From positions 75,740-139,739 of the forward strand of contig JAZQUH010000039.1 of the NCBI GenBank assembly GCA_045631185.1: a stretch of DNA of 64,000 nucleotides, in the 5' to 3' direction. The stretch's first letter is position 1; every line of letters begins with the position of its first letter. Position numbers and translations under genes: made by a program. Positions 17,226 to 63,831 of the stretch are shown piece after piece. The stretch comes from Alphaproteobacteria bacterium. GTDB lineage: Bacteria > Pseudomonadota > Alphaproteobacteria > CAAHEQ01 > UBA3637. The notes beneath the pieces are model-generated. The model did no database searches and was not told where the DNA came from. It was given only the letters and a program-made list of their open reading frames with translations.

Positions 17226-19355
17226 ATGAATAACGAACCTGAATTTTTATCTGAACTCAATCCCGAACAATTTCAAGCGGTTACTACAACCGAAGGACCT
17301 TTGTTGGTTTTATCGGGGGCCGGTACAGGTAAAACACGTGTTTTAACCACACGGATTGCCTATATTTTGGCACAACGTTTGGCACTACCTTGGCAGATTT
17401 TGGCAGTCACCTTTACCAACAAAGCGGCCAAAGAAATGGGTGGTCGTTTGGAACAAATGGTGGGATCAGCTTCCTTTGGTGTTTGGTTGGGGACTTTTCA
17501 CCGCATCGGTATTAAAATTTTACGCCGTTATGGTGGTTATGTTGGTTTGCAACAAAACTTTGCCGTTTTGGATTCGGATGATCAAGAAAGATTGTTGAAA
17601 AACTTGATGCAACAATATGGTGTGGATACCAAAAAATATCCGCCCAAAATGATGATGGATATTATTCAACGTTGGAAAGACCGTGGTCTGTCCCCCGATA
17701 AAGTAACCCATGCCGAATCCTGTGATTTTTGTGAAGGCAGAAGTTTGGATTTTTATAAACTTTATCAGCGTAAACTCACCGAAATGAATTCGGTTGATTT
17801 TGGTGATTTGTTGATGTTGCCGTTAAAGTTATTTCAGGAAAACGCCAATGTCTTGGCCGAATATCAGGAACAGTTTCATTATATCTTGGTGGATGAATAT
17901 CAGGATACCAACGTGGTTCAATATATGCTGTTAAGATTATTGGCCAAAAAGCATAATAACATTTGTTGTGTGGGGGATGATGATCAATCCATTTATTCGT
18001 GGCGTGGGGCAGATGTGGATAACATTTTAAATTTTGGTAAGATTTTCCCCAACGCCAAGGTGATTCGCTTGGAAAGAAACTATCGTTCAACCGCGCATAT
18101 TTTAGGGGCGGCTTCGGGTTTAATTGCCAATAATACAGGTCGTATGGGCAAAACCTTGCGTGTGGCGGATGAACAAAAAAACATGGGTAATCTGGTTTCT
18201 GTGCAAGGTTATTGGAACGGTTTACAGGAAGCCGAAAAAGTGATTGAACAGATAGAACACGATTTGCGAATGGGTACATCACTTTCCCAAATCGCCATTT
18301 TGGTGCGGGCCGGATTTCAAACCCGTGAATTTGAAGATAAATTGATTCAATCAGGAATTCCTTATAAAATTATCGGCGGATTTAAATTCTATGAACGTGA
18401 AGAAATTCGTGATGCAGTGGCCTATTTAAGATTGGTTTTAAACCCAAATGATGATTTGGCTTTTGTCCGTATTGTCAATAAACCCCGCCGTGGTATTGGT
18501 GATGTGGTGATGCAAGCGTTGCGTCAAACGGCTCAGGATAATCATCTCAGTTTATTTGATGCCATTGATTGGGCGGATTTAAAAACAGCCCCCAGAAAAT
18601 CATTACAAACCTTTAAGTCTTTGGTTCAATCGTGGCAAGAACACAGCAAAAATTTATCCCCCGTTGATTTAATCAAGGAAATTATGGATCAATCGGGCTA
18701 TGTGATGATGTGGCGTTTGGATAAATCGCCCGAAGCCCCCGGTCGTGTTGAAAACATTCACGAACTTTATAACGTTTTGGGTGATTTTGAAAGCATTGAA
18801 CAATTTATTGAATATGCCAGTTTATTGACCGAAAATGACGAAATGGCGACCAATGAACAATTGGTGGTAATGACTTTACACGCCAGCAAAGGTTTGGAAT
18901 TTGATACCGTCTTTTTAACCGGATGGGAAGAAGGCTTGTTTCCCCATCAACGTGCCATGGATGAAGCGGGTGATTTGGGATTGGAAGAAGAACGTCGTTT
19001 GGCCTATGTCGGTATTACACGTGCCCGAAAATCGGCACACATTTCTTATGCCAGCAATCGTCGTATTTATGGTCAATGGCAAAATTCATTACCCAGCCGT
19101 TTTATAAAAGAATTACCCGAAGAACATATTGATATGCGTGGGAATAACCGTATGGGTTATGGGGCATCATTTGCGGATGTGCGCATGCCGTGGGCCCATG
19201 AAAAAGTTCAACCCAAATCCCGCAAAGGCCGTCAGGTTATGCACGAAACTTTTGGTAAAGGTGTTGTGCTTCGTGAACACGGGGAAATGTTGGAGGTTGC
19301 CTTTGAGCGTGGCGGTATCCGAAAAATTATAGCACGCTTTTTAACGGAAATTTAA
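17226..19355 (+). CDS. uvrD: UvrD/PcrA/Rep-family SF1 DNA helicase
   Basis: GAGTGKT Walker A, VDEYQDTN, TLHASKGLEF, YVGITRA motifs. Confidence 0.9.
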   Translation: MNNEPEFLSELNPEQFQAVTTTEGPLLVLSGAGTGKTRVLTTRIAYILAQRLALPWQILAVTFTNKAAKEMGGRLEQMVGSASFGVWLGTFHRIGIKILRRYGGYVGLQQNFAVLDSDDQERLLKNLMQQYGVDTKKYPPKMMMDIIQRWKDRGLSPDKVTHAESCDFCEGRSLDFYKLYQRKLTEMNSVDFGDLLMLPLKLFQENANVLAEYQEQFHYILVDEYQDTNVVQYMLLRLLAKKHNNICCVGDDDQSIYSWRGADVDNILNFGKIFPNAKVIRLERNYRSTAHILGAASGLIANNTGRMGKTLRVADEQKNMGNLVSVQGYWNGLQEAEKVIEQIEHDLRMGTSLSQIAILVRAGFQTREFEDKLIQSGIPYKIIGGFKFYEREEIRDAVAYLRLVLNPNDDLAFVRIVNKPRRGIGDVVMQALRQTAQDNHLSLFDAIDWADLKTAPRKSLQTFKSLVQSWQEHSKNLSPVDLIKEIMDQSGYVMMWRLDKSPEAPGRVENIHELYNVLGDFESIEQFIEYASLLTENDEMATNEQLVVMTLHASKGLEFDTVFLTGWEEGLFPHQRAMDEAGDLGLEEERRLAYVGITRARKSAHISYASNRRIYGQWQNSLPSRFIKELPEEHIDMRGNNRMGYGASFADVRMPWAHEKVQPKSRKGRQVMHETFGKGVVLREHGEMLEVAFERGGIRKIIARFLTEI

Positions 19356-19570
19356 TCACGGCTTCTTTTGCGTCTGGGATCGGATGAATATGAACCTAAT
19401 GCTGAACCCAAACATGCACCGGCCAGTATGGCTACAGCTGTTGAAGAAAGAACATTTTCTTTTTTATCAATCGCTTCATTTGTCCGGTAAAGCGTATAAC
19501 ATTGGAATAAAGCACAACAAGCAATGGCTGTTCTTTTTAATCGTAAAATATTTTTGTCGCTGATTTTCAT
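19352..19570 (-). CDS. Small two-TM membrane protein (tandem paralog A)
   Basis: 72 aa; basic N- and C-termini, two hydrophobic/small-residue segments. Confidence 0.45.
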   Translation of the reverse strand: MKISDKNILRLKRTAIACCALFQCYTLYRTNEAIDKKENVLSSTAVAILAGACLGSALGSYSSDPRRKRSRD

Positions 19571-50964: not shown

Positions 50965-52086
50965 ATGGCACAAGGAAAAAATGAGGTAAAATTAAAAGGC
51001 GGTGCGTTGGAATCAATTAATATGGCTTATGCCCAATTAATGGTTCGTTTGCATGCAACAGATCGATTAGAGATGTATCGTAAATTGGCGGCCCTTTTGA
51101 AAAACAGATTTTCTTTGATGGATGCTTTGGAACGTTTATATCAAATTGCTTCAAAAGACGGAAAAAGTCCTTCAGATACGATGGCCATGGCAGTAGCCAA
51201 TTGGATGTTAAAAATTCGAAATGGTCAGACTTTTTCGGAAGCATTACATGGTTGGGCTCCTTCTACCGAATTGTTATTGTTATCAGTGGGTGATGTTGCT
51301 AATTTGGAATTAGCCTTGGAACATACTGTACGCGTCGTTGAAGGCATGAACAAAATGCGCTCTTTGGTTTGGGGTGCTGTGGCTTATCCTTTGTTTTTGT
51401 TGTGTATGGTGGCTTTATTGATTTGGGGTGTGGCCAAGTTCATGGTGCCACCGATGAAGGAAGCCGTGCCGAATTTGGAATGGCAAGGGGTTGCAGGCTC
51501 ATTAATTGATTTGTCTAATTTTGTTGACCAGCACCCGATATTATTATTTTCTATTGTACCTGTAATTACTATCTGTATAATGATTACATTTCCATATTGG
51601 AAGGGTGCTGGTCGGGCAGCATTTGATAAATTTCCGCCATGGTCCATTTATCGTGGTTTTGTGGGGGTCAGCTGGTTGTTGGCTTTATCGGCTTTGGTGC
51701 GTGCTGGTATGCCTGTTTCCAAGGCTGTTCGTTCGCTACTGGGTGATGATTCAACTCCTTATTTAAAGTTTCGTTTAAATCGCACATTATTATTTATTAG
51801 TAATGGTGATAACTTAGGCGAAGCCTTATATCATACCCGCTTGGGATTTCCAGATGAAGAAGTAATAGGCGATTTACGGATTTATTCTGAGTTGGATACA
51901 TTTCCTGAAGCTTTGGAAAACTTGGCAACAGGTTGGTTGGAATCATCGGTTCGCACTATCGGGAAACAGGCGGAAATTTTAAACTCGATTGCCATTTTGG
52001 CCATTGCCGCTGTCATCGGTTGGGTGGTTTGGGGAACCTTTGCCATGCAGGATCAAATGGTCAGCGGTATGGGCTTGGGCGGTTAG
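50965..52086 (+). CDS. GspF/PilC-family inner-membrane platform protein (R64 PilR-like)
   Basis: 373 aa, duplicated cytoplasmic domain + 3 TM layout; AAGGAAGG RBS. Confidence 0.8.
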   Translation: MAQGKNEVKLKGGALESINMAYAQLMVRLHATDRLEMYRKLAALLKNRFSLMDALERLYQIASKDGKSPSDTMAMAVANWMLKIRNGQTFSEALHGWAPSTELLLLSVGDVANLELALEHTVRVVEGMNKMRSLVWGAVAYPLFLLCMVALLIWGVAKFMVPPMKEAVPNLEWQGVAGSLIDLSNFVDQHPILLFSIVPVITICIMITFPYWKGAGRAAFDKFPPWSIYRGFVGVSWLLALSALVRAGMPVSKAVRSLLGDDSTPYLKFRLNRTLLFISNGDNLGEALYHTRLGFPDEEVIGDLRIYSELDTFPEALENLATGWLESSVRTIGKQAEILNSIAILAIAAVIGWVVWGTFAMQDQMVSGMGLGG

Positions 52087-52271: not shown

Positions 52272-52520
52272 CTATTTTAAAATAAGGTTTAACAAAGCCA
52301 TAATCAGGGCAGTGCCTGTTGTGGCCACGATAATGGTAATTAAATTTTTAATCGGTGTAATTTCATTTTTTAAAACAAACTCTTGTTTTAAATTGGCATA
52401 TAGTGTGTCAACCTGTTGTTTGATTTCACCAAGTTGTTGTTGCAATAATGAAACGGACGCCATCAATTTGCCGATTTCTATGGATAGACTGGGGGCAGGC
52501 ATATCAGACTCCTTAAACAT
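52272..52520 (-). CDS. Tail-anchored coiled-coil protein (holin/spanin-like)
   Basis: 82 aa; coiled coil then C-terminal TM ITIIVATTGTALIMALLNLIL; 8-nt overlap with hydrolase gene. Confidence 0.45.
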   Translation of the reverse strand: MFKESDMPAPSLSIEIGKLMASVSLLQQQLGEIKQQVDTLYANLKQEFVLKNEITPIKNLITIIVATTGTALIMALLNLILK

Positions 52521-52917
52521 TTTTATAAAATAAATGATTGCCGATTTGGGCGCATGGGATTAAATGTCTGGCCCACAGGGGATGACATTCAAAGGTGTGA
52601 TAGTGCGTGGCCCCGTTTGTGTTATCCTTTAATACACCGGCTAAAGCTCTTTTAACGATTCTTTGGCAAATTTGATAAACGGGATTTTCGGATAAATCGC
52701 CTGTTAAAATTTTGTAATTGACATCATTGTGATTCCAACATGAAAATTGTTTGGGCTTTAAACATACTTCACGGATATTTTTGCCCCACCACATCGGTTG
52801 GATCAGATTCATTTTGACACGATTTAAAATAACATTGGCAACGGCTTCTTGACCGGCCAAAGATTCGCCACGGGCTTCACCGTAAATTGTTTTTGAAAAG
52901 ATTTCTTCTTCTGTCAT
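52513..52917 (-). CDS. SleB-type cell wall hydrolase (endolysin)
   Basis: TIYGEARGE..AVANVILNRV, QFSCWN, THYH..IGNHLFY (Hydrolase_2 pattern). Confidence 0.8.
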   Translation of the reverse strand: MTEEEIFSKTIYGEARGESLAGQEAVANVILNRVKMNLIQPMWWGKNIREVCLKPKQFSCWNHNDVNYKILTGDLSENPVYQICQRIVKRALAGVLKDNTNGATHYHTFECHPLWARHLIPCAQIGNHLFYKNV

Positions 52918-52929
52918 TTATTATTCTCC

Positions 52930-54321
52930 TTATCGCCACAGGGGGCGTTGTTTATAAAAAAGCGGTAAAGTTTTCAATCGAACGGGTTCGCTTAACAAAC
53001 ATCCCGCCACGGCATCCAAACCATCATCATGGGTATTTCCGGTTGAATTAAAATCTTGCATTTCCCGAATAAAAGGTGTTTTTAAAACACTTTCATGGGC
53101 ATATAGGTTGCCGTTTAACAAAGGTGGCTCTATGGCCCCTAAAATGCGTTCGGTTTTATTTTGTCGGGCTGTTTCTTCCAATACGGCAATGGCCAAGCGT
53201 TGGCGGGATAATTCCTGACGCAACAGGGCCGGTAAGAATCGCCCGATACCGTTTGTTTCCAAATGAATGGCCGGCAACATCAATTCTTTTAAAAACTGAA
53301 CAACTTTTTGGCATTGATAAGAGGTTGCTTCTTCATTTTCGGGAACGGTTAAATATAATAATTGATGAATGTAATGAAAACCAGTTGCATCCGAAAAAAC
53401 GCCCGCTACGACACTTTTATCGCCACCGACTTTACCAAAGGCCGGATCCCACCAGGCACATCCCGAAACCAATCGCCGAGAATTTAATTTTAAGACGGCC
53501 TGACCATTGGCTTCGGTATAATCCAGATTATCCGAATAAATTTTTAATTTTCTTTCATCCAAGCGTTGTTTATCAAAGGCCACCGCCTCTAACATCATTT
53601 GGCTTAAAAATTTAAAACGTGGGGTTGTTTGTTTTATTTGATTTATTTTATCCACAGAAAATCTTTCGGGCCAAGTGGCCAAGCCTGATGCATCCATAAT
53701 CGGTAATTTTAAAAGTTTCCAATTTGGTTGATTGTAAATACTTTGGCGTGTATGGGGTGTGCCGATATACAAAATCAATCCGTCGGGTGACAGGATATAA
53801 TCCAATTCGGCCAGTTTTTGTTTTAAATCTTCACGTTTGCCGGCTGTATCACATGTTTTGGGTACTTCCACATCATCACATAAAATGATATCAGCCCGAC
53901 ATCCTGTGATATTGGCACTTAAACCACGGGCCAAAACGGACGGATCACGACCACCGGCGGGACGTTGAACGGTCAATTTATCACCGGCCCATTCTTCGGC
54001 TTTTTCGGGCTTTAATCCATGACACAGAGGATGGCGTTCCAAAATATGTTTGATATGACGCACCATTTTTTGCGCCAAAGCGTGATCGGCCGATAAAACC
54101 AATAATCTTAAATTGGGATTTTGCGTTAAAACCCACGCACAAAACAAACCGACGATGGTTGATTTTCCTGAATTGCGAAAGGCCATTAAAACGGCCTGTC
54201 TGCGTCCTTGTGAAAAATAAAGTTCAGACAAAAAACGGCCCATTATTTTGTGGTGATTTGGAATGGATAAATTTTGGATTTTATCCCAAATCCATACGAA
54301 TTCCAGAAATGTCGTTTTCAT
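52930..54321 (-). CDS. Phage terminase large subunit
   Basis: Walker A RNSGKST, Walker B IILCDDVE, C-terminal nuclease HDDGLDA. Confidence 0.85.
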   Translation of the reverse strand: MKTTFLEFVWIWDKIQNLSIPNHHKIMGRFLSELYFSQGRRQAVLMAFRNSGKSTIVGLFCAWVLTQNPNLRLLVLSADHALAQKMVRHIKHILERHPLCHGLKPEKAEEWAGDKLTVQRPAGGRDPSVLARGLSANITGCRADIILCDDVEVPKTCDTAGKREDLKQKLAELDYILSPDGLILYIGTPHTRQSIYNQPNWKLLKLPIMDASGLATWPERFSVDKINQIKQTTPRFKFLSQMMLEAVAFDKQRLDERKLKIYSDNLDYTEANGQAVLKLNSRRLVSGCAWWDPAFGKVGGDKSVVAGVFSDATGFHYIHQLLYLTVPENEEATSYQCQKVVQFLKELMLPAIHLETNGIGRFLPALLRQELSRQRLAIAVLEETARQNKTERILGAIEPPLLNGNLYAHESVLKTPFIREMQDFNSTGNTHDDGLDAVAGCLLSEPVRLKTLPLFYKQRPLWR

Positions 54322-54571
54322 CTTTTAAATCCTCTTTGGCCTGATGAATCAAATCCAATAAATCGGTTTGATTGGTGGGTTGTTTTTTGGGTGCTATATC
54401 CAAAATTTTAATCAATAAAGCAATATGCAACAGTGCCGATTTACATGCACTGTGATAGGCGTTAAAATCTTTGGCATTCATGGGGCAATCGGCATTGGCA
54501 AAGGATTGATATGTTTGAACGGCTTTTTCCAAAAAAGGTTTCATTTTTTTCAGATAGGCCTTCATACGCAC
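54281..54571 (-). CDS. Phage hypothetical protein (possible small terminase, unproven)
   Basis: ORF-track start is GTG; first ATG at 54565; helical 94-96 aa; overlaps TerL start. Confidence 0.35.
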   Translation of the reverse strand: MRMKAYLKKMKPFLEKAVQTYQSFANADCPMNAKDFNAYHSACKSALLHIALLIKILDIAPKKQPTNQTDLLDLIHQAKEDLKDENDISGIRMDLG

Positions 54572-55048
54572 CTACTTAATCATTGTACGGCTGATACCGC
54601 CGGCCAAATTACCCAAAGTGCCATACATATTATTTTGGCTGGCCTGATTGATGCTGTTTAATTTTAACAGGTTTGTACCGGTGGAATGATTCAAGCTGTT
54701 TAACAGGGCATCCGATGATATTTTGGCCTGATTGACCAAGTATTTATCCTCCATATCATATTCCCTTTGCATGGCGTTTAAATAAGTTTGCCCCGTTCCC
54801 GATTGACCGGATAATCCCGACGCCCCCAGTTTGGCTTTATAACTGGCCTGTTGTTGAGCCAACAAATTTTTGTTTCTTCGTTGTCTTTCATTTAACGCCA
54901 ATTGTGCTTGTTTATCCTGTAAAGCGGCCTGTTCGGCGGCATAGGCATTGGAACGTTTGATGGCTTTTTTTTGACGATCGGCATTGGCTTTTGTATAATA
55001 AGCCGAACCCAAGATTGAGACGGCTGTGGCAATAACTGCTGCTTCCAT
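54572..55048 (-). CDS. Phage internal-virion-like protein, Q/N-rich with N-terminal anchor
   Basis: 158 aa; MEAAVIATAVSILGSAYY hydrophobic N-terminus; AGGAGG RBS. Confidence 0.4.
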   Translation of the reverse strand: MEAAVIATAVSILGSAYYTKANADRQKKAIKRSNAYAAEQAALQDKQAQLALNERQRRNKNLLAQQQASYKAKLGASGLSGQSGTGQTYLNAMQREYDMEDKYLVNQAKISSDALLNSLNHSTGTNLLKLNSINQASQNNMYGTLGNLAGGISRTMIK

Positions 55049-55049
55049 A

Positions 55050-56975
55050 TTATCCTCCTATTTTAATATCACTGATAACCGAAACCAATTGAAAAGGCAG
55101 AGGTTGCTTGCCTTGAATAATCCATAAAGGTTCGGTCGGATTTCTTTTCCATCCCAATCCCCGTACAACAATATCTGTTGTTTTGGTGCTGGGGGCACTG
55201 TCCAAAATATAATTATTCAGACTTTCGTTCATTTCCTGATGTAATCCGCAACCGGTGTCTATTTCAAAACTTTTGGTATTGATTAAACGAAATACGCCCC
55301 TGACAAAGCGACATGATGCCACCGGTGCAGAACCGTTGCTGGCACCGGCTGAGGCGGGCAAGGGAACAATTTTATGCGAAAAGCCTAAACCGTATTGTAG
55401 TTTTTGGGCATTGATATTTAACCGAACCGTTCCGGTTGAAATATCCTGATTTTCCTGAACACGTCCATCGGCCAATAATTGCACATTCCATCCGTTTAAA
55501 TAATCCAAACCGTCCCAATCCATTTGTGGCGTTTGGCTTGTTTGATTTTGGGCCAAATCCATATACATTTCATCATCCATTTTTTCCAAATAAAATTTAT
55601 CTTTTCTTTGTGTAATGAAATAGGTGGATTTCCCTGAAACGGCAACATTTAAAAATTTGCCTTGCGTTTTATGACGTGTCCAACTTTGGATATCTTCACC
55701 CCTAAAACTGGTCAAAGCACTTAATGAACCGTCCTGCATGATGATATAGGCCTGACGTTGATATTTATCATAGGCCATATCCACCGGATGATTGATGACA
55801 TGGTGGGCCAGCAAAGATAAATCGGTAGCCTGATAGATGCCTTCCAAATCCGAAAACAAAAATTCACGGATTTCTTTGCCATTGGCACTGGCAAAAATGG
55901 TGGCACCGTCAATGCCCACCGGCGGGATATAATTTTCATCAGGTGAGCCCACCTGAGTTTGGCGGTGTAATTGAATGGATTCGGGGGTTAAAGGATTACC
56001 CGATACCATCCATTCGGCACCGGTTGTAAAAACCTGTAAATGCCGACCGGAAAACAAGGCGGTGATTTTATTACCCTGATTGGACATCAACGAAAAACAG
56101 ATGGCTTCGTTATCCAGTGCTGTTCCTTCTTCAAAGTTACCCAAGTCATTACTTTGGCTGAACCATAATGTATTGGGTAAACTTTTGGATCCGCCAAAAA
56201 CCAATCGGGATTGATAAGTGGCAACCGTTGCCGGCCATCCGCGTTCATCGCTCCATGCAACTTCACCCCAATATCTTGTGGCTTCTAATTTTGTTTCTTT
56301 TGTGGCATCTTCATCATCCAACAATTTTTTTAAAACGGTTGCATTGGCATGTTGATTATCACTGACGGCTGTGATTTTGACATAACCGGCGCCTAATTTG
56401 AAAACCTGATTCAAATGTTTGCTTTCAAATAAAGGTGCATTGGCTGTTAAAGTAACCGAATCCAAACATCCGCTGGATGAAATGGATATGTTTTTATCAT
56501 TAAAACGGTGATAGGGGATATGCATATATCCGTTTTGGTTTAAAAATTCAAAGCTTTTTATTTGCCATTGACCGTTATCCAATTTGATATGTTGTGGGGC
56601 AAAATCGGGATGCACGATAATCACGCCATCCGATAGGCAAGCCCAACGAATTTGGCGAATATCTTCATCATCCCAGGGGGTTGTGAGAGTGCTAATCAAA
56701 ATATCGTTTTGAAAAATCTTCGTTTGATTATTTTGTATAACCAATAAATAAGTATGTGAACTATCTTGCTCATAACCGATTAAACGTCCTTTTGTTTGTA
56801 ATTCAAAAATGTATTTTAATCCGGGTCGGCGATGAACACCGCCGGTGGGTTCAATAAAAACATTTTCCAAAATTTGTGCACCGTTATGATAGCTGGTTAA
56901 ATCCACCCGTCCCAATAAATCGGGAGATAATTCACCGGCCGTGAAATTTGTTTTGGCGGTAAACATATTTGTCAT
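55050..56975 (-). CDS. Podovirus tail tubular protein B / nozzle-like
   Basis: 641 aa following a 189-aa protein after capsid (T7 gp11/gp12 order); N-terminus FTAGELSPDLLGRVDLTSYHNGAQ; ATGA overlap upstream. Confidence 0.5.
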   Translation of the reverse strand: MTNMFTAKTNFTAGELSPDLLGRVDLTSYHNGAQILENVFIEPTGGVHRRPGLKYIFELQTKGRLIGYEQDSSHTYLLVIQNNQTKIFQNDILISTLTTPWDDEDIRQIRWACLSDGVIIVHPDFAPQHIKLDNGQWQIKSFEFLNQNGYMHIPYHRFNDKNISISSSGCLDSVTLTANAPLFESKHLNQVFKLGAGYVKITAVSDNQHANATVLKKLLDDEDATKETKLEATRYWGEVAWSDERGWPATVATYQSRLVFGGSKSLPNTLWFSQSNDLGNFEEGTALDNEAICFSLMSNQGNKITALFSGRHLQVFTTGAEWMVSGNPLTPESIQLHRQTQVGSPDENYIPPVGIDGATIFASANGKEIREFLFSDLEGIYQATDLSLLAHHVINHPVDMAYDKYQRQAYIIMQDGSLSALTSFRGEDIQSWTRHKTQGKFLNVAVSGKSTYFITQRKDKFYLEKMDDEMYMDLAQNQTSQTPQMDWDGLDYLNGWNVQLLADGRVQENQDISTGTVRLNINAQKLQYGLGFSHKIVPLPASAGASNGSAPVASCRFVRGVFRLINTKSFEIDTGCGLHQEMNESLNNYILDSAPSTKTTDIVVRGLGWKRNPTEPLWIIQGKQPLPFQLVSVISDIKIGG

Positions 56976-57541
56976 GCGCGTACCTCAATCAAAGAAAAAT
57001 CCTGAAAGCAGGGGTTTATGGATTGTTGTGAATCCACTAATCTGGCCTGTTTTAATTCTTCGGCGGCAATTTTACGCATATAATCCGTGCGCGTTGTGCT
57101 TTCGGTTAAAGGCAGACAAAATTCGCTGGCCAACTGGGTGATAAAGGCCTTTACAAAAAAAGGCGGAAAAGTGCTTTCATCGGGTTTTTCAATATAATTT
57201 AAAATAACTTTTGGTGTATTGGCGTACAGGCATTTACCCACAATTTTATATTGTAATCCCGAACTTTTGATATTTTGTCCGGCCGATAAAATCCGCAAAC
57301 AATTATTGGGTAATTGAAAGGCGTATTGGTAATCCGAAACGGGTTTGTTTTCCAATCGGGCCAAATTTTTTTGTTTTAATGCAAAACGCCACGGATAGGA
57401 TGCCAATAAGTTTTCCAAGGTTGGTTGATACAATTGGGATGCCACGGTGGATTCACAGGACGTTTCATCAAAAGAAGAAATACTGTTGGCCCCCAATTCC
57501 ACCAAAGCACGAGAGCATAAATCAATGTTTGTGTATGACAT
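56972..57541 (-). CDS. Podovirus tail tubular protein A / adaptor-like
   Basis: Start moved to MSYTNIDL (AAAGGAAC RBS); 189 aa; position after the capsid terminator. Confidence 0.45.
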   Translation of the reverse strand: MSYTNIDLCSRALVELGANSISSFDETSCESTVASQLYQPTLENLLASYPWRFALKQKNLARLENKPVSDYQYAFQLPNNCLRILSAGQNIKSSGLQYKIVGKCLYANTPKVILNYIEKPDESTFPPFFVKAFITQLASEFCLPLTESTTRTDYMRKIAAEELKQARLVDSQQSINPCFQDFSLIEVRA

Positions 57542-57558
57542 ATTGTTCCTTTTGTATG

Positions 57559-57592
57559 AAAAAATCCCCCTTGGGATAAAACCAAAGGGGGA
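57559..57592 (-). terminator. Intrinsic terminator immediately after capsid gene
   Basis: Minus strand UCCCCCUU(U)GG-loop-CCAAGGGGGA + U6. Confidence 0.75.
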
Positions 57593-57611
57593 CAAATGGT
57601 AAAGATTTTTT

Positions 57612-58457
57612 TTAGACGGCCTTATCCAAGCAAACCATTTTGACAACACCGTTATCGTCAATCAGGCTGGCCCCTTGGCTCATCATGTTGTTCACATAAT
57701 GGGCGGCATAATCACCGTGCCATGTGATATCGGTTGTGATATCCTGACCAGCGGCCAAACCGACGGCTGATTTGTGATAGATAAAACAGGTTGTACAGGC
57801 TGAATCACCGGCACCTTCTGTGGGCAATCCGGTGTGCATAATCCAATTGATTCCCATCCATTTGCGTGTTTCGGAACCCGTCAACAACGGATGCGCATCA
57901 CCCACATAGTTGGCATTTGAAAATTCATCCAAGCTCAACAATTGATTCCATTGCGCCGGTCCCACCAAAGCATAGCGTTCACCATCATCGGGAACATTGG
58001 CGCTGTTGAGTTTTTGAAAGGCCTGCAAAATGCGTTCTTTGGTCAAACCTGTTGATCCATCACCGGCACTTTGTGTGGCATTTTCTAAAACGCAAATAAT
58101 CAATTCATCTGTTTTGCGTCCCAAAGCATAGGCACCGGCTGTGGCCAAAACTTTGCGTTCGTCATGGCCGACCTTTAATTCATCCAATTTGTCAATCCAT
58201 TGACCGGCATACCAATCGGACAAAGTACATTCCACCGGTGCGTGTGTGACGGCGGCGGGTGTCAATTGGGCATTGCGGGATGATTTTTGGTTGGCTGTTT
58301 GGGTGCCGATAACCTGAAAGGTTGTGCTGGAACCTGTAATACCGCCTTTAAAACGGACGGTGTTGCGTAATTTGGAACCTTGTTGTTGATAGGCTGTGTG
58401 GACATCGGCTTCAAAATGTTTTACAAATGAAGCGTCAATGGTGTTTGAAGTTGTCAT
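57612..58457 (-). CDS. Phage major capsid protein
   Basis: Start MTTSNTID with GGAGAA RBS; pattern FVKHFEADVHTAYQQQGSKLRNTV..YALGRKTDELI; position after scaffold. Confidence 0.65.
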   Translation of the reverse strand: MTTSNTIDASFVKHFEADVHTAYQQQGSKLRNTVRFKGGITGSSTTFQVIGTQTANQKSSRNAQLTPAAVTHAPVECTLSDWYAGQWIDKLDELKVGHDERKVLATAGAYALGRKTDELIICVLENATQSAGDGSTGLTKERILQAFQKLNSANVPDDGERYALVGPAQWNQLLSLDEFSNANYVGDAHPLLTGSETRKWMGINWIMHTGLPTEGAGDSACTTCFIYHKSAVGLAAGQDITTDITWHGDYAAHYVNNMMSQGASLIDDNGVVKMVCLDKAV

Positions 58458-58579
58458 TATTTTCTCCATATAGTTTTAAGTTTAAAAAATCCTTATCAAA
58501 GGTTGTGAAGAAAATCTTCGCCTTCATTCGGGCTGGTTAAGGTGCGGGGCGCTGGGCTTATCCGCAAAATAAAAAGGCT

Positions 58580-59233
58580 TTAACCGTATAAACGTTTAAA
58601 GCCTTTTTCAATACGGCCGACCAATTCGGGATCCTGATCTTTCCAATATTTTGGATCCTGCATCAATCGGCGTAAAGTTTTTTCATCATCCATGGGGTTG
58701 AGGCGACTTTTACCTTTGATAACAGGTGATTCCTGTTTTTCCTGCATCATGCGGTAAAGCGTTAAAACACCGTCTTTTGTGGATGATAAAATTTCAAAAG
58801 TTTTTTGATCTAAATTTTTTTCACCCCATGCGGATAATTCACGGGCGACATTGTTGAAATGTTCGGCACCGCCAAATTCGTCCTCCAAAGCTTTTAATTC
58901 TTTATCACATCCGACTTGACGGGCAAAATTTTCCAACTGGGGTAAAATAAAATCGGCCGCGATATCATAAACCCCTTGCACCTGTTCATTGGTCAATCCC
59001 AATTCAAACAATCGTTTGTTGATGATTAAATCGGATAGTAATAACGGGTCTTTCGGGGTAATTTTATAATCTTCGGCTTTGTTGGGGATGGTACCGTTTT
59101 GTGTTTGTCTGGGGGTGCTCATCTTTTTTTCCAAAGCCAAATAAGATTTTAACAATTCATCGGTATTTAATTTTCCTTCTTTGTTTAAAAATTTTTCGGG
59201 GATAGCGGGTGTTTCGTTGATTTGTTCACTCAT
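58580..59233 (-). CDS. Phage scaffolding protein
   Basis: Start MSEQINE (AAGGAA RBS); PEKFLNKEGKLNTDELLKSYLALEKK motif typical of scaffolds; helical, acidic. Confidence 0.6.
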   Translation of the reverse strand: MSEQINETPAIPEKFLNKEGKLNTDELLKSYLALEKKMSTPRQTQNGTIPNKAEDYKITPKDPLLLSDLIINKRLFELGLTNEQVQGVYDIAADFILPQLENFARQVGCDKELKALEDEFGGAEHFNNVARELSAWGEKNLDQKTFEILSSTKDGVLTLYRMMQEKQESPVIKGKSRLNPMDDEKTLRRLMQDPKYWKDQDPELVGRIEKGFKRLYG

Positions 59234-59249
59234 AAATAATTCCTTTTGT

Positions 59250-59447
59250 TTAAGGTTGTTTTCCATTTTGAATTAAACGTTCCATTGTGGCAATCAGGGC
59301 ACGTTGCCCTTCCAAATACCACAGTTCCTGATTACTGGCCTGAGGGGATAAAATTCGCCCTGATATTTTTTGACGCAAATAATTTAAAACGGTTTTACCG
59401 TCTGTTGTTTGGGCCAATCTGGTAAAAGCATGGGCAATACGAATCAT
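59250..59447 (-). CDS. Small phage protein (65 aa)
   Basis: MIRIAHAF start in ATGA overlap with portal stop. Confidence 0.4.
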   Translation of the reverse strand: MIRIAHAFTRLAQTTDGKTVLNYLRQKISGRILSPQASNQELWYLEGQRALIATMERLIQNGKQP

Positions 59448-60910
59448 GGTGTACTTTCGCTTGGTTGTAATTGAATAAAGTTGGCGGGCAATCCCATTTT
59501 TTCGGTCAGCCATTTTAATACTTCATTGGTGTTCATTTTGGCCAAAACATCATTACCCAAGCCGGCCACGGCGGATATCCATGCTAAAGCATTTTGAGCC
59601 TCTTTTTTGGATTGCATTTCGGCCCGTGGGGATTTATAGGTAATGTTTAACAACCGCCCGTCCAAAAAGATTTCAGGGATTTCGCCACGTTTGCGTAAAA
59701 TACCGACAGCCCGTTCAATTAAAGGTGTCAATAATTCGGATTGCAAACGGCCATAGGTGGCGCCCAAAATACGAATCATTTCTTCGCTTCGTTCCAAAAC
59801 TTCGGTGGCGGTCATTTTCATTTCATCACAAACCGTCCCCAATTTATCGCCCAACATTGCATGTCGGATGCGTTCACGCAAATCTTTGATAACCAATTGT
59901 GATACATCAAACTTGCCGGGGGCTTCCAAAGGCGTTAAACCTTTGGAGCCGACGGCTTTTGGAATAATCGCACCGGGGGTCAGATTGATGGTGGCGGGGT
60001 TGAGTACACCATCATCTTCGGCTAACCAGATACCTGTCACGGCAATCGTGGCGTTTTTCAAAATCAATTCCACGACTTTGTTGGCTGTTTTAATATCGGG
60101 TAAAGCTTTCATGACAGGGGAACGCCCGTAAATTTCCCCCGGTGCTTTCAGCCAGCGGAAAGCGATAAACGGCGAAGTGGTGTAATGTGTTTCGCTCAGG
60201 AGGAAAGGTGACTCCTGATTATCGCCTGAGAATGACTGGCAATTGGGATCTGAAAAGCAAGTATAAGTATAACCGCCTTTGGGGCAGGGGATTAAAGCCT
60301 CTATCACACGCAAAGGTGATTTATCGTCTTTATCCCGTTTGGGTAATTTGTTGGCGCCGAATTTGGCAACAAAGGATTCTTCATCCATGGCAAAGCTTCT
60401 GAAAACTTTATCCAATTTACCGTTATTACCTTCGGCTAAACAGATTTCGTTTAACGGAACGGCCGTAAATTTAAAGGCCGATGAAGAACCGATATCGCTT
60501 TGTTCAAATAATAAACAGGCTGTCCCGACCGTAATTAAATCCAAATAACATTGATGGATTTCCGTTGAAAAGTTGGATCTGTCCAAATGCGATTGCAAGG
60601 TGGCGGATATTTTTTCCAAAGTCGGGGCGATTTGAATTTTTTCTGTGGATGTCAATTCATCACCGGCGTTTAATTGGAACCATTGCACCCAAGGCGGTGT
60701 CAGTTCGCTCAACATTAAAGCGGCCAGCTGATCTGTTGCATCCAAAGCGGTGGCATCATACAGATTGGCAATTTTGTTTGCGCCGGGTAAAAAGGTTGTT
60801 TGTCGTGTCGGCAGGGCATAGGCATAGCATTCTTGCCAAACCGATTCCCAATCAGACCGCTGTTGCACGGCCTGTTGATACATTTGATACAGTTTTTTGA
60901 TATCGGACAT
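59444..60910 (-). CDS. Phage portal protein (T7 gp8 / head-tail connector type)
   Basis: Start MSDIKKLYQMY with AAAGGAGAA RBS; LYDATALDATDQLAALMLSELTPPWVQWFQL. Confidence 0.75.
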   Translation of the reverse strand: MSDIKKLYQMYQQAVQQRSDWESVWQECYAYALPTRQTTFLPGANKIANLYDATALDATDQLAALMLSELTPPWVQWFQLNAGDELTSTEKIQIAPTLEKISATLQSHLDRSNFSTEIHQCYLDLITVGTACLLFEQSDIGSSSAFKFTAVPLNEICLAEGNNGKLDKVFRSFAMDEESFVAKFGANKLPKRDKDDKSPLRVIEALIPCPKGGYTYTCFSDPNCQSFSGDNQESPFLLSETHYTTSPFIAFRWLKAPGEIYGRSPVMKALPDIKTANKVVELILKNATIAVTGIWLAEDDGVLNPATINLTPGAIIPKAVGSKGLTPLEAPGKFDVSQLVIKDLRERIRHAMLGDKLGTVCDEMKMTATEVLERSEEMIRILGATYGRLQSELLTPLIERAVGILRKRGEIPEIFLDGRLLNITYKSPRAEMQSKKEAQNALAWISAVAGLGNDVLAKMNTNEVLKWLTEKMGLPANFIQLQPSESTP

Positions 60911-60937
60911 TTTTTCTCCTTTGGGTTGATTACAACT

Positions 60938-60976
60938 AAAAATAGAAAAAAGGACCTTTCGTAAAACGAAAAGTCC
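60938..60976 (-). terminator. Intrinsic terminator between late promoter and portal gene
   Basis: Minus strand GGACUUUUCG-UUUUA-CGAAAGGUCC (10 bp, the single irregular pair is G.U only on this strand) + UUUUUUCUAUUUUU. Confidence 0.8.
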
Positions 60977-61010
60977 CTTTGGATACACTTCTAACTTTTA
61001 ATTGATTCGC

Positions 61011-61039
61011 ATTATAGCATAAATTTTTTCATTTGTCAA
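61011..61039 (-). promoter_or_regulatory. Consensus sigma70 late promoter
   Basis: Minus strand TTGACA - 17 nt - TGcTATAAT (perfect -35, -10 and extended TG). Confidence 0.75.
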
Positions 61040-61436
61040 GGAAAATTTTCCTTTTTTCTTTTTTTAAGGCTAAATACAGCTGATATGGTGTCCAAATTTT
61101 GGGGTTTGTCAGACCTAAAAAACGCTTGACGGTTTCCACACAGGTCATGGGTCTGAGATGAAAGGAAATTTTTTTTGGCATAACCAAAGTCGTGCGTACC
61201 AATTGGTATCCTTTGTTTTTTAAAATTTGGGGTGCGCACCTTTGATGCATTAAAATTAAATCGGTATAATGCATCACCGGATCAATTAAAATCCATTCAA
61301 AATCATTGCCGATTAAAAGGGCGCAATGATAAAAGCCTTTTTTTAAAAAACGGGTCCACCAATGCGTGGGATTGCCACCAAAGGCCACATAGGCAAAAGG
61401 AAAACGATAAGCGTTTACGGATGGTGTATAAATCAT
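61029..61436 (-). CDS. Phage early protein, 135 aa, unknown function
   Basis: AAGGAG RBS; conserved-looking Cys/His (FYHCALL.., MTCVETVKRFLG). Confidence 0.5.
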   Translation of the reverse strand: MIYTPSVNAYRFPFAYVAFGGNPTHWWTRFLKKGFYHCALLIGNDFEWILIDPVMHYTDLILMHQRCAPQILKNKGYQLVRTTLVMPKKISFHLRPMTCVETVKRFLGLTNPKIWTPYQLYLALKKEKRKIFLDK

Positions 61437-61451
61437 GTCAAACTCCTTTAT

Positions 61452-61811
61452 TTATGTGGCATAAACGATTCCTTTTTGTTTTAATAAATTGCCCAAAAAT
61501 TTTAATCCTTCATACCACAGGCGACAAATTTTCGGTGTATCGCCAAAATGTTCGTGTGGCGGAACTTGGGCAAAGCCGTATTTGGCCAAAACCTTTAAAT
61601 GTTCGGCTTTTAAAGTGCCGTTTTGCATCAATCTTTTAACGGCGATGGCGATATCGGCCGATTCGCACGGACGTGCAATTTTGGATTCTCCCCCACGGCT
61701 TCTTTCATGTTTTAAATTTTCGCATAAACAGTACCAAAACCACGCCTCTTCACTGGAAGAAAAAGGTGTTGTTTGTCTGTTGTCAACGGATGATAGATAT
61801 TTATTCTTCAT
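61452..61811 (-). CDS. Phage early protein, 119 aa, Cys/His-rich (candidate regulator)
   Basis: GAGGAG RBS; WFWYCLCENL, RPCES, PPHEHF, KICRLW. Confidence 0.5.
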   Translation of the reverse strand: MKNKYLSSVDNRQTTPFSSSEEAWFWYCLCENLKHERSRGGESKIARPCESADIAIAVKRLMQNGTLKAEHLKVLAKYGFAQVPPHEHFGDTPKICRLWYEGLKFLGNLLKQKGIVYAT

Positions 61812-61848
61812 ATTTTTCTCCTCGGTTTATAAAAAAAGAACAAAACGA

Positions 61849-61877
61849 GAACTAACATATTTTTTTATGAATGTCAA
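61849..61877 (-). promoter_or_regulatory. Early promoter (divergent from repressor promoter)
   Basis: Minus strand TTGACA - 17 nt - TAGTTC. Confidence 0.4.
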
Positions 61878-61926
61878 GAGGGAAATAAGAAAAAAATCCT
61901 ATTGACAAACATTTGAAAATATGTTA
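61853..61926. promoter_or_regulatory. Candidate operators in the switch region
   Basis: AACAT-N8-ATGAA (61854-61871) and AACAT-N8-ATGTT (61908-61925) each fill a promoter spacer; 11-bp inverted repeat TAACATATTTT / AAAATATGTTA. Confidence 0.4.
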
Positions 61927-61930
61927 AAGT
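61902..61930 (+). promoter_or_regulatory. Repressor gene promoter
   Basis: TTGACA - 17 nt - TAAAGT. Confidence 0.55.
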
Positions 61931-61960
61931 GATTTACAACTAAAAAGAGAAAGGAATAAG

Positions 61961-62596
61961 ATGCAACTTTCGTATAATGAAATTTGGCTGGGTTTGGAAA
62001 ATCTGGCACAAAATAAGGGAATGTCTTTGTCGGCATTGGCGCAAAAGGCCGGTTTGGATCCCACCAGTTTTAATAAATCCAAGCGTATTGGGGCGGATGG
62101 GCGCAAACGTTGGCCGTCCACCGAAAGTATGAATAAGGTTTTAAAGGCCACCAACACCACGGTCTTTGAATTTATGGAATTGGCGGGGCAACCGTGTCCG
62201 ACACCCAAAAATATGATTCCTTTGTTGGGATTGGCCAAAGCGGGACGGGAAGGTTATTTCGATTCGGACGGTTGGCCAATTTTATCGGGCGATTGGGATG
62301 CGGTTGAATTTCCTTTGACAATCGATAAGCGAGTTTACGCTTTGGAAGTTTCGGGTAACAGTATGGAGCCTGTCTATCGTGAAGGTGATAAATTGATTGT
62401 GGCGCCCGATTCGGAAATCCGCCGTGGCGACCGTGTAATTGCCAAAACCATATCGGGCGAAGTGATGGTGAAAGAATTTCAACGCCGATCCATGAATCAA
62501 GTGGAATTAAAATCACTCAATCCTGATTGTGAAGATGTCTATTTGAATCCGTCTGATATCGCATGGATGGCCCGTGTAATTTGGGTCAGCCAATAG
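61961..62596 (+). CDS. CI/LexA-like repressor: HTH + S24 peptidase
   Basis: N-terminal HTH (MSLSALAQKAGLDPTSFNKSKR); S24 GNSMEPVYREGDKLIV with downstream catalytic Lys (VMVKEF). Confidence 0.8.
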   Translation: MQLSYNEIWLGLENLAQNKGMSLSALAQKAGLDPTSFNKSKRIGADGRKRWPSTESMNKVLKATNTTVFEFMELAGQPCPTPKNMIPLLGLAKAGREGYFDSDGWPILSGDWDAVEFPLTIDKRVYALEVSGNSMEPVYREGDKLIVAPDSEIRRGDRVIAKTISGEVMVKEFQRRSMNQVELKSLNPDCEDVYLNPSDIAWMARVIWVSQ

Positions 62597-62681
62597 TTTT
62601 CCTTTTTGATTTTTTTGCTTGCAATTGATGTGAAAGTATGCTAAACATCAAACAGTTTTTATAAAAACCAAGGAGTTTTAG

Positions 62682-63218
62682 ATGAAAAAAATGGGAATTT
62701 TTGCCACTTTGATGATGTTGGCAACTTCGGTGCGGGCTAATCCTGCCTGTACGACCTTGTGCCCGTTGGTGTTGGGCGCGTCTTTGGGAATTGCCCGCAA
62801 ATTGGGTGTAAAGGATGAAGTGGTCGGTGTTTTGTTTGGTGCTTTGTTGGCTATTTTGGGATATTGGTTTATCCGCTTTTTTGAAAAAAGAAATTGGAAC
62901 TTTAAAGGCCGTAATTTTATTTTGATGGCGTTGTCTTTATCAACGGTGGGCTTTGTTTATTTGAACACTTTGACCTATAAGCCTATGTTGCATTGGAACT
63001 TATTCTATATCGATTCATTTTTGTGGGCCGCCATTTGGGGGGCAATTGCCCACATTTCAGGGGTTCATTTGTATGGTTGGTTAAAGGAAAAAAATGGCGG
63101 ACATGCCCATTTTCCGTTTGAAAAAGTTGTGATTCCTGTTGCTTTAGATTTGTTTGTGTGCTGGATTTTTGGTGGCACAAACTTGTGCGAATGCAAGGAA
63201 GTCTTTATATTAAATTAA
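62682..63218 (+). CDS. Membrane protein, unknown function
   Basis: Signal/TM N-terminus, 4-5 TM; AAGGAG RBS. Confidence 0.5.
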   Translation: MKKMGIFATLMMLATSVRANPACTTLCPLVLGASLGIARKLGVKDEVVGVLFGALLAILGYWFIRFFEKRNWNFKGRNFILMALSLSTVGFVYLNTLTYKPMLHWNLFYIDSFLWAAIWGAIAHISGVHLYGWLKEKNGGHAHFPFEKVVIPVALDLFVCWIFGGTNLCECKEVFILN

Positions 63219-63231
63219 AAGGAGTAAAACC

Positions 63232-63831
63232 ATGAAAAAAGCAGAATCAGTCAAAGAATTCGTGGAACGTGTGGATGCCACAAAAAAGAAAAATCCAAAA
63301 GATTTGTCTTCGGATCAGGATTTGACAATTGCCATTATGAACCTTATTTCCATTGAAGAACATTTGATTTTTTCGGGTGCTAAAACTGGTAAAGACAGCT
63401 TTTATGATTTGGTTCAGGATGTGCGTGAATTGCGCAAAAATTTAATGTTGCAAATTATCCCGTCCTATGAAGGCGAAGTATGGTGTATTTCCAAACATTT
63501 GTTGGCCACCTCTATGCGTTTGATGGAAGTGGGTACAAAACAACAATCCATGGGGCATAAAGAAAAAGCCAATCAATTGTTCACTCAGGCCTATGATTTA
63601 TACTGTTTGTTCTGGGGCTTGAATATGAATTTGGTGGATACCAAAGATATCGCTTGGAAACCGGATAATTTGGAAGATGTTGAAAAGGAAGTGGCACAAT
63701 TGACAAAAGGCGCTCAGGCAACCCCTGTAAAGGTTGAAAAAAAAGAAGTGGTTGAAGCGGTGCCTGCCACTGGTGTTTTCGGAAAATTAAAAGCGGTGGT
63801 GCGTAAAGCCGTTGATTGTTGTATTGAATAA
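63232..63831 (+). CDS. Hypothetical soluble protein (199 aa)
   Basis: AAGGAG RBS, 13 nt after preceding gene; no motif recognised. Confidence 0.5.
   Translation: MKKAESVKEFVERVDATKKKNPKDLSSDQDLTIAIMNLISIEEHLIFSGAKTGKDSFYDLVQDVRELRKNLMLQIIPSYEGEVWCISKHLLATSMRLMEVGTKQQSMGHKEKANQLFTQAYDLYCLFWGLNMNLVDTKDIAWKPDNLEDVEKEVAQLTKGAQATPVKVEKKEVVEAVPATGVFGKLKAVVRKAVDCCIE

Follow-up and report, generated by a model that had tools for sequence, protein, structure and literature searches.

Introduction

Antitermination, in which RNA polymerase (RNAP) is made resistant to terminators, is the logic by which several phages and phage-derived elements control particle or lysis genes, the reference case being the PR'-tR'-Q module of phage lambda, with Q21 and Q82 as further examples. 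Related arrangements have been described in the gene transfer agents (GTAs) of Bartonella and Caulobacter and in the AlpR-AlpA-alpBCDE pathway of Pseudomonas aeruginosa. Here, a stretch of 64,000 nucleotides (nt) from an Alphaproteobacteria bacterium (contig JAZQUH010000039.1), referred to as the window, was analysed for a promoter and an intrinsic terminator that stand before the portal gene of a T7-like element, and the locus was compared with these systems.

In Bartonella, the BaGTA promoter PbgtA-K is a constitutive TTGACA-N17-TATCAT promoter, accompanied by a leader terminator and the antiterminator BrrG (bioRxiv 10.1101/2024.11.20.624540). CcGTA of Caulobacter employs GafZ, a dedicated processive antiterminator that is loaded at the cluster promoter to pass terminators (PMC11150451). 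In P. aeruginosa, the self-cleaving, LexA/CI-like AlpR controls a small regulator gene, with lysis following DNA damage, and the targets of AlpA are promoters followed by a close intrinsic terminator, which lies 26 base pairs (bp) downstream at PA0807 (PMC7969949, PMC9371919).

The features of the window can be read as SOS-triggered, processive antitermination of the lambda-Q/BrrG/AlpA kind, controlling the late genes of a T7-like, possibly domesticated element of ~11 kb; judged from sequence, we give this reading an even chance. It is favoured by the combination of a maximal promoter with two terminators, one canonical in the leader and another further downstream, and by the adjoining small-gene operon, which bears a LexA box and faces the gene of a self-cleaving repressor.

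The promoter and the leader terminator

All coordinates are those of the window, and the features of the switch are read on the minus strand (Table 1). A first-pass annotation, made from the sequence, had described TTGACA, a 17-nt spacer and TGcTATAAT, with the -35 box in the last codons of open reading frame (ORF) ORF135, and each of these was found as claimed; the stop codon of ORF135 occupies 61031-61029, which places the -35 box within its final codons. The same annotation had called this the strongest-looking promoter in the window. An exact TTGACA-N17-TATAAT occurs at this one site in the whole 64 kb, where ~0.03 matches would be expected by chance (an arithmetic estimate from base composition), and sites with at most one mismatch number 6 against 0.96 expected. 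A consensus scan for promoters and terminators, covering 54-64 kb, returned it as the sole 12/12 match with an upstream TG, and the hairpin as a terminator-like site of 15 pairs. By its -35 and -10 boxes, its spacer length and its extended -10 TG, it would be a sigma-70 promoter, with a predicted transcription start near 61004.

Table 1. Features of the switch and its neighbours, in window coordinates
Feature	Position	Strand	Remarks
A/T-rich element GGAAAATTTTCC (family form GGAAAAWWWTCC)	61040-61051	minus	Abuts the -35 box; invariant in all aligned loci
Late promoter: TTGACA (61039-61034), 17-nt spacer, TGcTATAAT	61011-61039	minus	12/12 consensus match, extended -10 TG
Extended -10 region	TG 61019-61018; -10 box TATAAT 61016-61011	minus	
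P1 5' strand, predicted transcript 5' end CAATTAAAAGTTAGAA	60989-61004	minus	Pairs with 60947-60933 in the minimum-free-energy fold
Bulged motif GTGTATCC (consensus YTGYRYCC)	60981-60988	minus	Fixed at +17 to +24 from the predicted start
Terminator hairpin P2	60948-60980	minus	15 pairs, ~-17.5 kcal/mol, loop of 3-5 nt
U-tract TTTTTTCTATTTTT (T6-C-T-A-T5)	60938-60951	minus	Directly after the stem; distal part is the start of the P1 3' strand
P1 3' strand	60933-60947	minus	Sequence past the U-tract
Portal ribosome-binding site (RBS) and start codon	AAGGAG 60921-60916; ATG 60910	minus	
RBS and portal gene, first late gene	59444-60921	minus	T7-type portal, PF12236, E = 6e-124
Second intrinsic terminator	57566-57590	minus	CCCCTTTGG...CCAAGGGGG then ATTTTTT; directly after the major capsid gene
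ORF135	61029-61436	minus	Conserved small gene directly upstream of the late promoter
ORF119	61452-61811	minus	Conserved helical protein; candidate regulator/antiterminator
Early promoter of ORF119-ORF135	61838-61877	minus	TTGACA 61877-61872; LexA-type box over the -10 region
CI/LexA-like repressor with helix-turn-helix and Peptidase_S24 self-cleavage domain	61961-62596	plus	PF00717, E = 1e-23; phrog_4

The hairpin lies ~28 nt past the predicted start, and the terminator ~28-60 nt from it. At its core lies the 10-bp stem GGACTTTTCG (60976-60967) / CGAAAGGTCC (60961-60952), which had been reported together with a single strand-specific wobble and the following T-tract; these coordinates hold, and the stem extends further, to the 15 pairs given in Table 1. 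The lone U.G pair of the core would be C.A on the opposite strand, making the pairing valid on the minus strand only. Stem, short loop and U-tract together have the form of an intrinsic (Rho-independent) terminator, and efficient termination is predicted on that ground. The leader folds at -29.2 kcal/mol (z = -4.9), a value equalled by no shuffle, and a scan of 52-64 kb with Rfam 15 gave two sub-threshold chance matches only, none of them in the leader.

Between the T-tract and the portal ATG only ~28 nt remain, leaving no room for a further promoter, as had been noted beforehand; the structural operon of 8 kb would therefore be transcribed only through the hairpin.

Conservation of the module

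The main comparison set consisted of 34 curated related loci, whose portal identity ranges from 90% down to ~50%. In L001-L019 (90% to 59%), the layout before the portal gene is identical to that of the window, and in another group a small additional gene stands between the module and the portal gene (L020-22, L031, L041, L046, L061, L068, L077, L078, L083, L187, L190, L202). A relaxed form is present in 22 of 58 loci (L023-L080), ten of which belong to the extra-gene group; the loci newly found in this form include Terasakiella, Magnetospirillum molischianum and fulvum, Telmatospirillum and Paramagnetospirillum. Additional diverged copies, also in GC-rich Rhodospirillales, were seen on inspection.

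Across the 34 loci the promoter is near-invariant, with a mean of 5.85/6 for the -35 box and 5.0/6 for the -10 box, and with the TG present in 30. Compared pair by pair, the loci are 70% identical over the promoter, 48% over the first 24 nt of the transcript and 32% over the hairpin arm. Nevertheless, a hairpin with a T-rich tail is found in every locus (34/34; mean -16 kcal/mol, 7-10 T in the tail window), and one fixed terminator criterion that recognises all 34 leaders recognises 4.7% of dinucleotide-shuffled ones. Since the promoter is near-invariant and the hairpin is kept despite the replacement of its arm sequences, both halves of the module are under selection.

Covariation was assessed in a covariance-model alignment, which is fitted to the model and includes ~5 spurious rows, so that its numbers lean towards structure: paired cells amount to 85.3% against 74.2% in shuffles (0/500 reach the observed value), double (compensatory) changes occur in 21 of 30 pairs (P2 13/15, P1 8/15), and the covariation score reaches 0.358, compared with 0.195 for shuffles and no more than 0.149 for slid controls.

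A classical attenuator with an alternative antiterminator hairpin was considered and rejected, because the sequences of the hairpin arms are entirely different from one locus to the next, and covariation with the 5' arm is seen in no upstream segment. The only region that co-varies with the leader 5' end is that after the U-tract.

Some relatives carry no promoter-terminator module (L054, L059, L060, L069, L074-L076, L080); in these, the ORF135 homologue overlaps the next late gene, so that a single operon comprises both early and late genes. Within the element family the module is thus an optional design. In L061, a second, weak match to the leader model (28 bits, E = 0.03) lies at 19332-19401, ~9.6 kb downstream of the true leader.

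The outer helix and the bulged motif

An outer helix, P1, encloses the terminator hairpin; it is formed by the first 16-17 nt of the transcript and the stretch that follows the U-tract. Because the 3' strand of P1 lies past the U-tract, the helix can form only in read-through RNA. The register of P1 differs between loci (for example, between L005 and the window) and cannot be represented in a MAFFT alignment, which was therefore replaced by a register-free duplex test and the alignment guided by the covariance model. In the duplex test, cognate strands pair at -9.8 kcal/mol and non-cognate strands at -6.7 kcal/mol (permutation p < 5e-5), a difference that holds for 16 dereplicated types. Compensatory pairs are exemplified by AACCTAGAA/TTCTAGGTT in L005, GGGAAACG/CGTTTCCC in L046 and CACCCG/CGGGTG in L077.

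Between P1 and P2 lies the bulged motif YTGYRYCC, which keeps a constant distance from the -10 box, with a linker to the hairpin that varies from 0 to 19 nt; GC-rich variants read TGCGTCC and TGCGCCC. A minimal NANNNT hexamer (AAGTGT in the window; AASTGT) overlaps the motif at ~+14 to +19 in 26 of the 34 loci.

This architecture raises the question of whether the leader serves RNA processing. P1, bulge and P2 could form an RNase III-type site or a 5' stabiliser, in which the T-tract would matter as a strand of P1 rather than as a termination signal. T7-like phages do use RNase III sites, which consist of two stems around an internal loop, and the ~30 nearly continuous bp that start at nucleotide 1-2 of the predicted transcript, with one asymmetric bulge and a co-varying P1, would suit such a role. 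It is countered by the T-tract, which directly follows a G+C-rich stem in 34/34 loci, including L046 and L078 with their weak or displaced P1, and this is the signature of an intrinsic terminator. A processing or stability function would, moreover, be compatible with antitermination and no replacement for it; as the sole explanation it seems very improbable.

Two further candidates were set aside. A leader peptide or N-terminally extended portal protein, suggested by a GTG at 60988 in frame with the portal gene, was rejected because relatives have CTG, CTC or ATG there. The other was a NusB/E boxA; the likeness of CAGTTAACA to the rrn boxA, judged by eye only, is partial.

The element upstream of the -35 box

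Depending on the locus, the ORF135 stop codon falls before, inside or after GGAAAAWWWTCC, which marks the element as a DNA signal rather than a coding constraint. It may be either UP-element-like or a protein-binding site; its sequence resembles the proximal part of the Escherichia coli rrnB P1 UP element. The spacer between the -35 and -10 boxes is merely A/T-rich.

The element next to the -35 box is also found in a recurrent promoter-like family that is GC-rich, GGAAAATAATCCTTGACAGCGTGACGCTCC...TAGGGT, with members in L099, L102, L142, L150, L169 (twice), L173 (twice), L182, L193, L194, L201 and L203. Several copies of this family sit before an ORF starting MAKRTRA, and tblastn found no element proteins near the copies.

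The divergent control region

The S24 repressor gene, present in 69 of 80 related loci, is encoded together with two small, probably membrane, proteins and diverges from ORF119-ORF135. Inside the divergent control region (61812-61960), the minus strand carries GTTCTCGTTTTGTTC at 61852-61838, a GTTC-N7-GTTC box that keeps an equal distance in 25 of 30 related loci. GTTC-N7-GTTC is the form of the alphaproteobacterial LexA box (PMC3091678). A predicted self-cleaving repressor beside a LexA-type box on a putative regulator operon corresponds, at the level of sequence, to the AlpR/AlpA arrangement, and induction by the SOS response would follow from it. The two divergent promoters mirror each other as an inverted repeat of 29 nt (61853-61881 / 61898-61926).

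In GC-rich relatives (L023, L025, L034, L042, L063, L064, L070), a conserved AGAACAAAAC-NN(N)-GATCA stands just past the leader terminator and before the first late gene. One mismatch separates it from the LexA-box form GAAC-N7-GAAC, and the motif could act as a roadblock that provides a second SOS input.

The late leader and the repressor mRNA begin alike (CAAYTAAAA-G-NN-AGAA), and an 18/19 direct repeat links the sequence after the leader hairpin (60930-60948) to the 5' untranslated region (UTR) of the repressor gene with its Shine-Dalgarno (SD) region (61934-61952); the two RNAs would be complementary. Antisense pairing in trans with the repressor mRNA was examined and rejected, since the copy in the repressor UTR is constant, and the leader copy is changed in L005, L006 and L008, which retain 11/17 matches.

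The same repeat bears on the possibility that the module is a small-RNA gene, yielding an abundant RNA of ~60 nt with a single-stranded 5' part, a terminator hairpin and a U-tail, which would act in trans (for instance on the repressor mRNA) or titrate a protein. Lambda makes its 6S RNA from PR'-tR', the layout is that of a typical bacterial small RNA with conserved 5' sequences (CAGTTAA and YTGYRYCC), and the complementarity runs across the repressor SD region. That complementarity, however, does not co-vary in the three changed loci, and it sits after the U-tract, hence is missing from the terminated RNA. P1 covariation reflects selection on read-through transcripts, no Rfam match was obtained, and even with a small RNA the late operon would still require read-through. 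A small-RNA gene is accordingly considered improbable.

The T7-like element and its second terminator

After the portal gene, the late genes follow in the order scaffold, major capsid, tail tubular A and B, a gp14-like gene, TerL and a SleB-type cell-wall hydrolase, ending at 52513 (Pfam, PHROG). At the portal-scaffold junction, a small ORF (59250-59513, minus strand) of the Bbp19-like family PF25181 (E = 9e-8) overlaps the portal 3' end. The element as a whole, 52513-63831, covers only ~11 kb, in which no genes for a polymerase, replication, an integrase, fibres or the internal core (gp15/16) were recognised. Genes for the type II secretion/pilus proteins E and F flank it on the left, ending at 52086, and in L001, a relative of 90% identity, CorA and exonuclease III genes flank it on the right. 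In L001-L007, seven species-level relatives, the element sits between the same host genes (type II secretion E/F and CorA).

Portal relatives were found in the genomes of more than 551 species, nearly all of them Alphaproteobacteria, and the nearest cultured phages are Pelagibacter podophages with ~33% portal identity. The gene content, comprising structural, packaging and lysis genes, fits a GTA or domesticated element, and the cluster may be a domesticated, GTA- or tailocin-like element. Literature searches found no description of this T7-like cluster.

The terminator that follows the major capsid gene is shared by all of L001-L022, with unrelated stems, and by 29 of 64 loci overall. In T7, the terminator T-phi after the capsid gene tunes protein stoichiometry, and the post-capsid terminator here could be the same classic T7-type device. 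This opens a passive reading of the whole arrangement: the leader hairpin would end the ORF119-ORF135 operon and serve as a leaky, fixed attenuator or insulator; the S24 repressor, or another protein bound at GGAAAAWWWTCC, would keep the late promoter repressed up to induction, after which an unvarying share of polymerases would read through; and the post-capsid terminator would only tune the head-to-tail ratio. Indeed, the hairpin lies 50 nt past the ORF135 stop codon and must for that reason terminate early transcripts too. A related copy of the upstream element, of the form GGA-(A/T)n-TCC, flanks the repressor promoter in the window and stands at the divergent promoter in L084, and the relatives in which ORF135 runs into the late genes indicate that no special factor is strictly needed for expression. 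The canonical and strong terminators described above speak against leakiness, and the strongest possible promoter set before a strong terminator would be wasteful unless bypass were conditional. The passive reading also leaves the fixed position of the leader motif and P1 unexplained, and the UP-like character of GGAAAAWWWTCC, with its presence at many unrelated promoters, argues against a specific operator. On balance, passive attenuation appears unlikely, and conditional antitermination is retained as the preferred reading.

ORF119 and ORF135

In 70 of the 72 loci with enough flank, the late genes directly follow the pair ORF119-ORF135. ORF135 has 134 homologues, in which H37, C38, D59 and C99 are invariant; it weakly resembles papain-like cysteine peptidases, a non-significant likeness, with no significant Foldseek match. 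For ORF119, 72 close homologues were found, and its family counts 613 representatives at 50% identity, none of which bears a name; the AlphaFold2 model of ORF119 consists of four helices (predicted local distance difference test score, pLDDT, 86.8). Between the two, ORF119 is the better candidate for an antiterminator, and only a candidate.

Proposed mechanism

In the proposed antitermination scheme, the very strong host sigma-70 promoter, with its A/T-rich upstream element, would fire into the strong intrinsic terminator ~28-60 nt downstream, so that by default only an RNA of ~60 nt would be made and the structural and lysis genes would stay silent. DNA damage would lift LexA and/or the S24 repressor of the element from the divergent region, switching on ORF119-ORF135. 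A product of this operon, preferably ORF119, would then make RNAP that started at the late promoter termination-resistant, enabling it to pass both the leader terminator and the post-capsid terminator. In the read-through RNA, P1 would bury the 5' end in a long hairpin, probably stabilising the late mRNA or marking it for processing. The first-pass annotation had proposed a lambda PR'-tR'-Q-like logic, which the sequence logic and the conservation of both promoter and hairpin support, and its wording, that the late operon needs read-through or an antiterminator, was judged to be the right level of claim.

Several observations weigh against this scheme. Neither ORF119 nor ORF135 has a match in Pfam, NCBIfam, PHROG or among PDB sequences, and a PDB profile search, Foldseek against PDB and BFVD, tblastn against GenBank phages and the names of their clusters were all negative or non-significant as to identity. 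Against PDB, the best Foldseek hit of ORF119 has E = 1.6; Q21 appears four times, at E = 3-7, with a template-modelling (TM) score of at most 0.42 and a probability of at most 0.15. The best BFVD match, a phage protein of ~120 amino acids annotated 'RNA polymerase subunit alpha', is likewise non-significant (E = 0.09, TM 0.54), and such model-based matches are best taken as leads, not evidence. Both proteins are also kept in relatives that do not carry the promoter-terminator module, so that their function cannot be tied to this terminator alone. A metagenome scan found GGAAAAWWWTCC at many unrelated alphaproteobacterial promoters as well, and it may for this reason be a UP-like element of general use and not a site of loading. 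P1 is weak in ~13 of the 34 loci, and among these 34 no convincing -10-like pause element was found, the mean similarity of the NANNNT hexamer to TATAAT being ~1.7/6.

A more far-reaching proposal is that ORF119 founds an unrecognised family of processive antiterminators or RNAP-modifying proteins, loaded via the element flanking the -35 box and/or YTGYRYCC, and that it controls an undescribed SOS-inducible, T7-like domesticated particle (a new GTA type or tailocin-like). The hosts of this particle would number hundreds of alphaproteobacterial species, with Magnetospirillum and lineages from gut and rumen among them. We regard this proposal as speculative and rather doubtful.

If the antitermination scheme is correct, then across hundreds of alphaproteobacterial species, among them magnetotactic spirilla and uncultured lineages of the gut and rumen, a compact, sequence-defined switch would decide on the building of a T7-like particle and on lysis. 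Antitermination, so far described for BaGTA and CcGTA, would be extended as a common control of alphaproteobacterial phage-derived elements, with a third, unrelated structural module of podovirus type placed under it. The module of ~150 bp and the two small candidate genes would provide a clean test bed that could reveal a new antiterminator family, and the promoter-leader model would offer a simple marker for such elements in metagenomes.

Comparison with known systems

The kind of control proposed here is known; what is new is the setting, the leader architecture and the lack of a recognisable antiterminator. As in the lambda Q systems, a strong, constitutive-type sigma-70 promoter would stand directly before the late genes for structure and lysis, an intrinsic terminator close to the promoter would give a short default RNA, and terminator-resistant RNAP would be needed, with a further terminator downstream. 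A promoter and a proximal terminator thus precede the late operon as in a Q-type module, but no Q-family gene was recognised immediately upstream, and no protein here has detectable Q-family sequence or significant structural similarity. The locus further differs from lambda in having no clear -10-like pause element, in the distance of the terminator from the start (~28-60 nt against ~194 nt in lambda), in the conserved outer helix and bulged motif, and in its T7-like head and stubby-tail module within an alphaproteobacterial chromosome.

With T7 itself, the element shares the placing of a terminator just behind the major capsid gene in its T7-like structural module, comparable to T-phi after gene 10. 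T-phi, however, acts on T7 RNA polymerase, whereas no phage polymerase was recognised here and the terminators have the intrinsic form suited to host RNAP.

The AlpR/AlpA system resembles the locus in its S24-type repressor, its small-gene regulator locus and a promoter with a close terminator. AlpA is a small winged-helix protein (Phage_AlpA) that binds between the -35 and -10 boxes, whereas the conserved DNA element here lies upstream of the -35 box; neither ORF119 nor ORF135 matched the Phage_AlpA family in Pfam, even at E up to 5-10. Unlike alpBCDE, the target operon encodes a whole particle.

CcGTA is likewise a phage-like cluster in an alphaproteobacterium, and it is domesticated. It differs in its GafY/IHF-dependent promoter activation, in a terminator formed by 150-bp GC-rich repeats after the first gene, and in its RcGTA-type cluster (HK97-like siphovirus), in contrast to the T7-like one here.

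BaGTA shares the alphaproteobacterial host, a near-consensus promoter ahead of the capsid cluster and a leader terminator, with its antiterminator encoded in a separate upstream module. Its leader measures 864 nt and carries a weak, L-shaped terminator (-6 kcal/mol), whereas the leader here has ~95 nt and a canonical terminator of -17.5 kcal/mol; BrrG is structurally Q21-like, and ORF119 is so only at non-significant scores; and the capsid module, unlike that of BaGTA, is T7-like. Lambda Q, BrrG of BaGTA, GafZ of CcGTA and AlpR/AlpA nonetheless share an experimentally shown logic, and by analogy with it antitermination is the favoured reading of the promoter and terminator that precede this portal gene.

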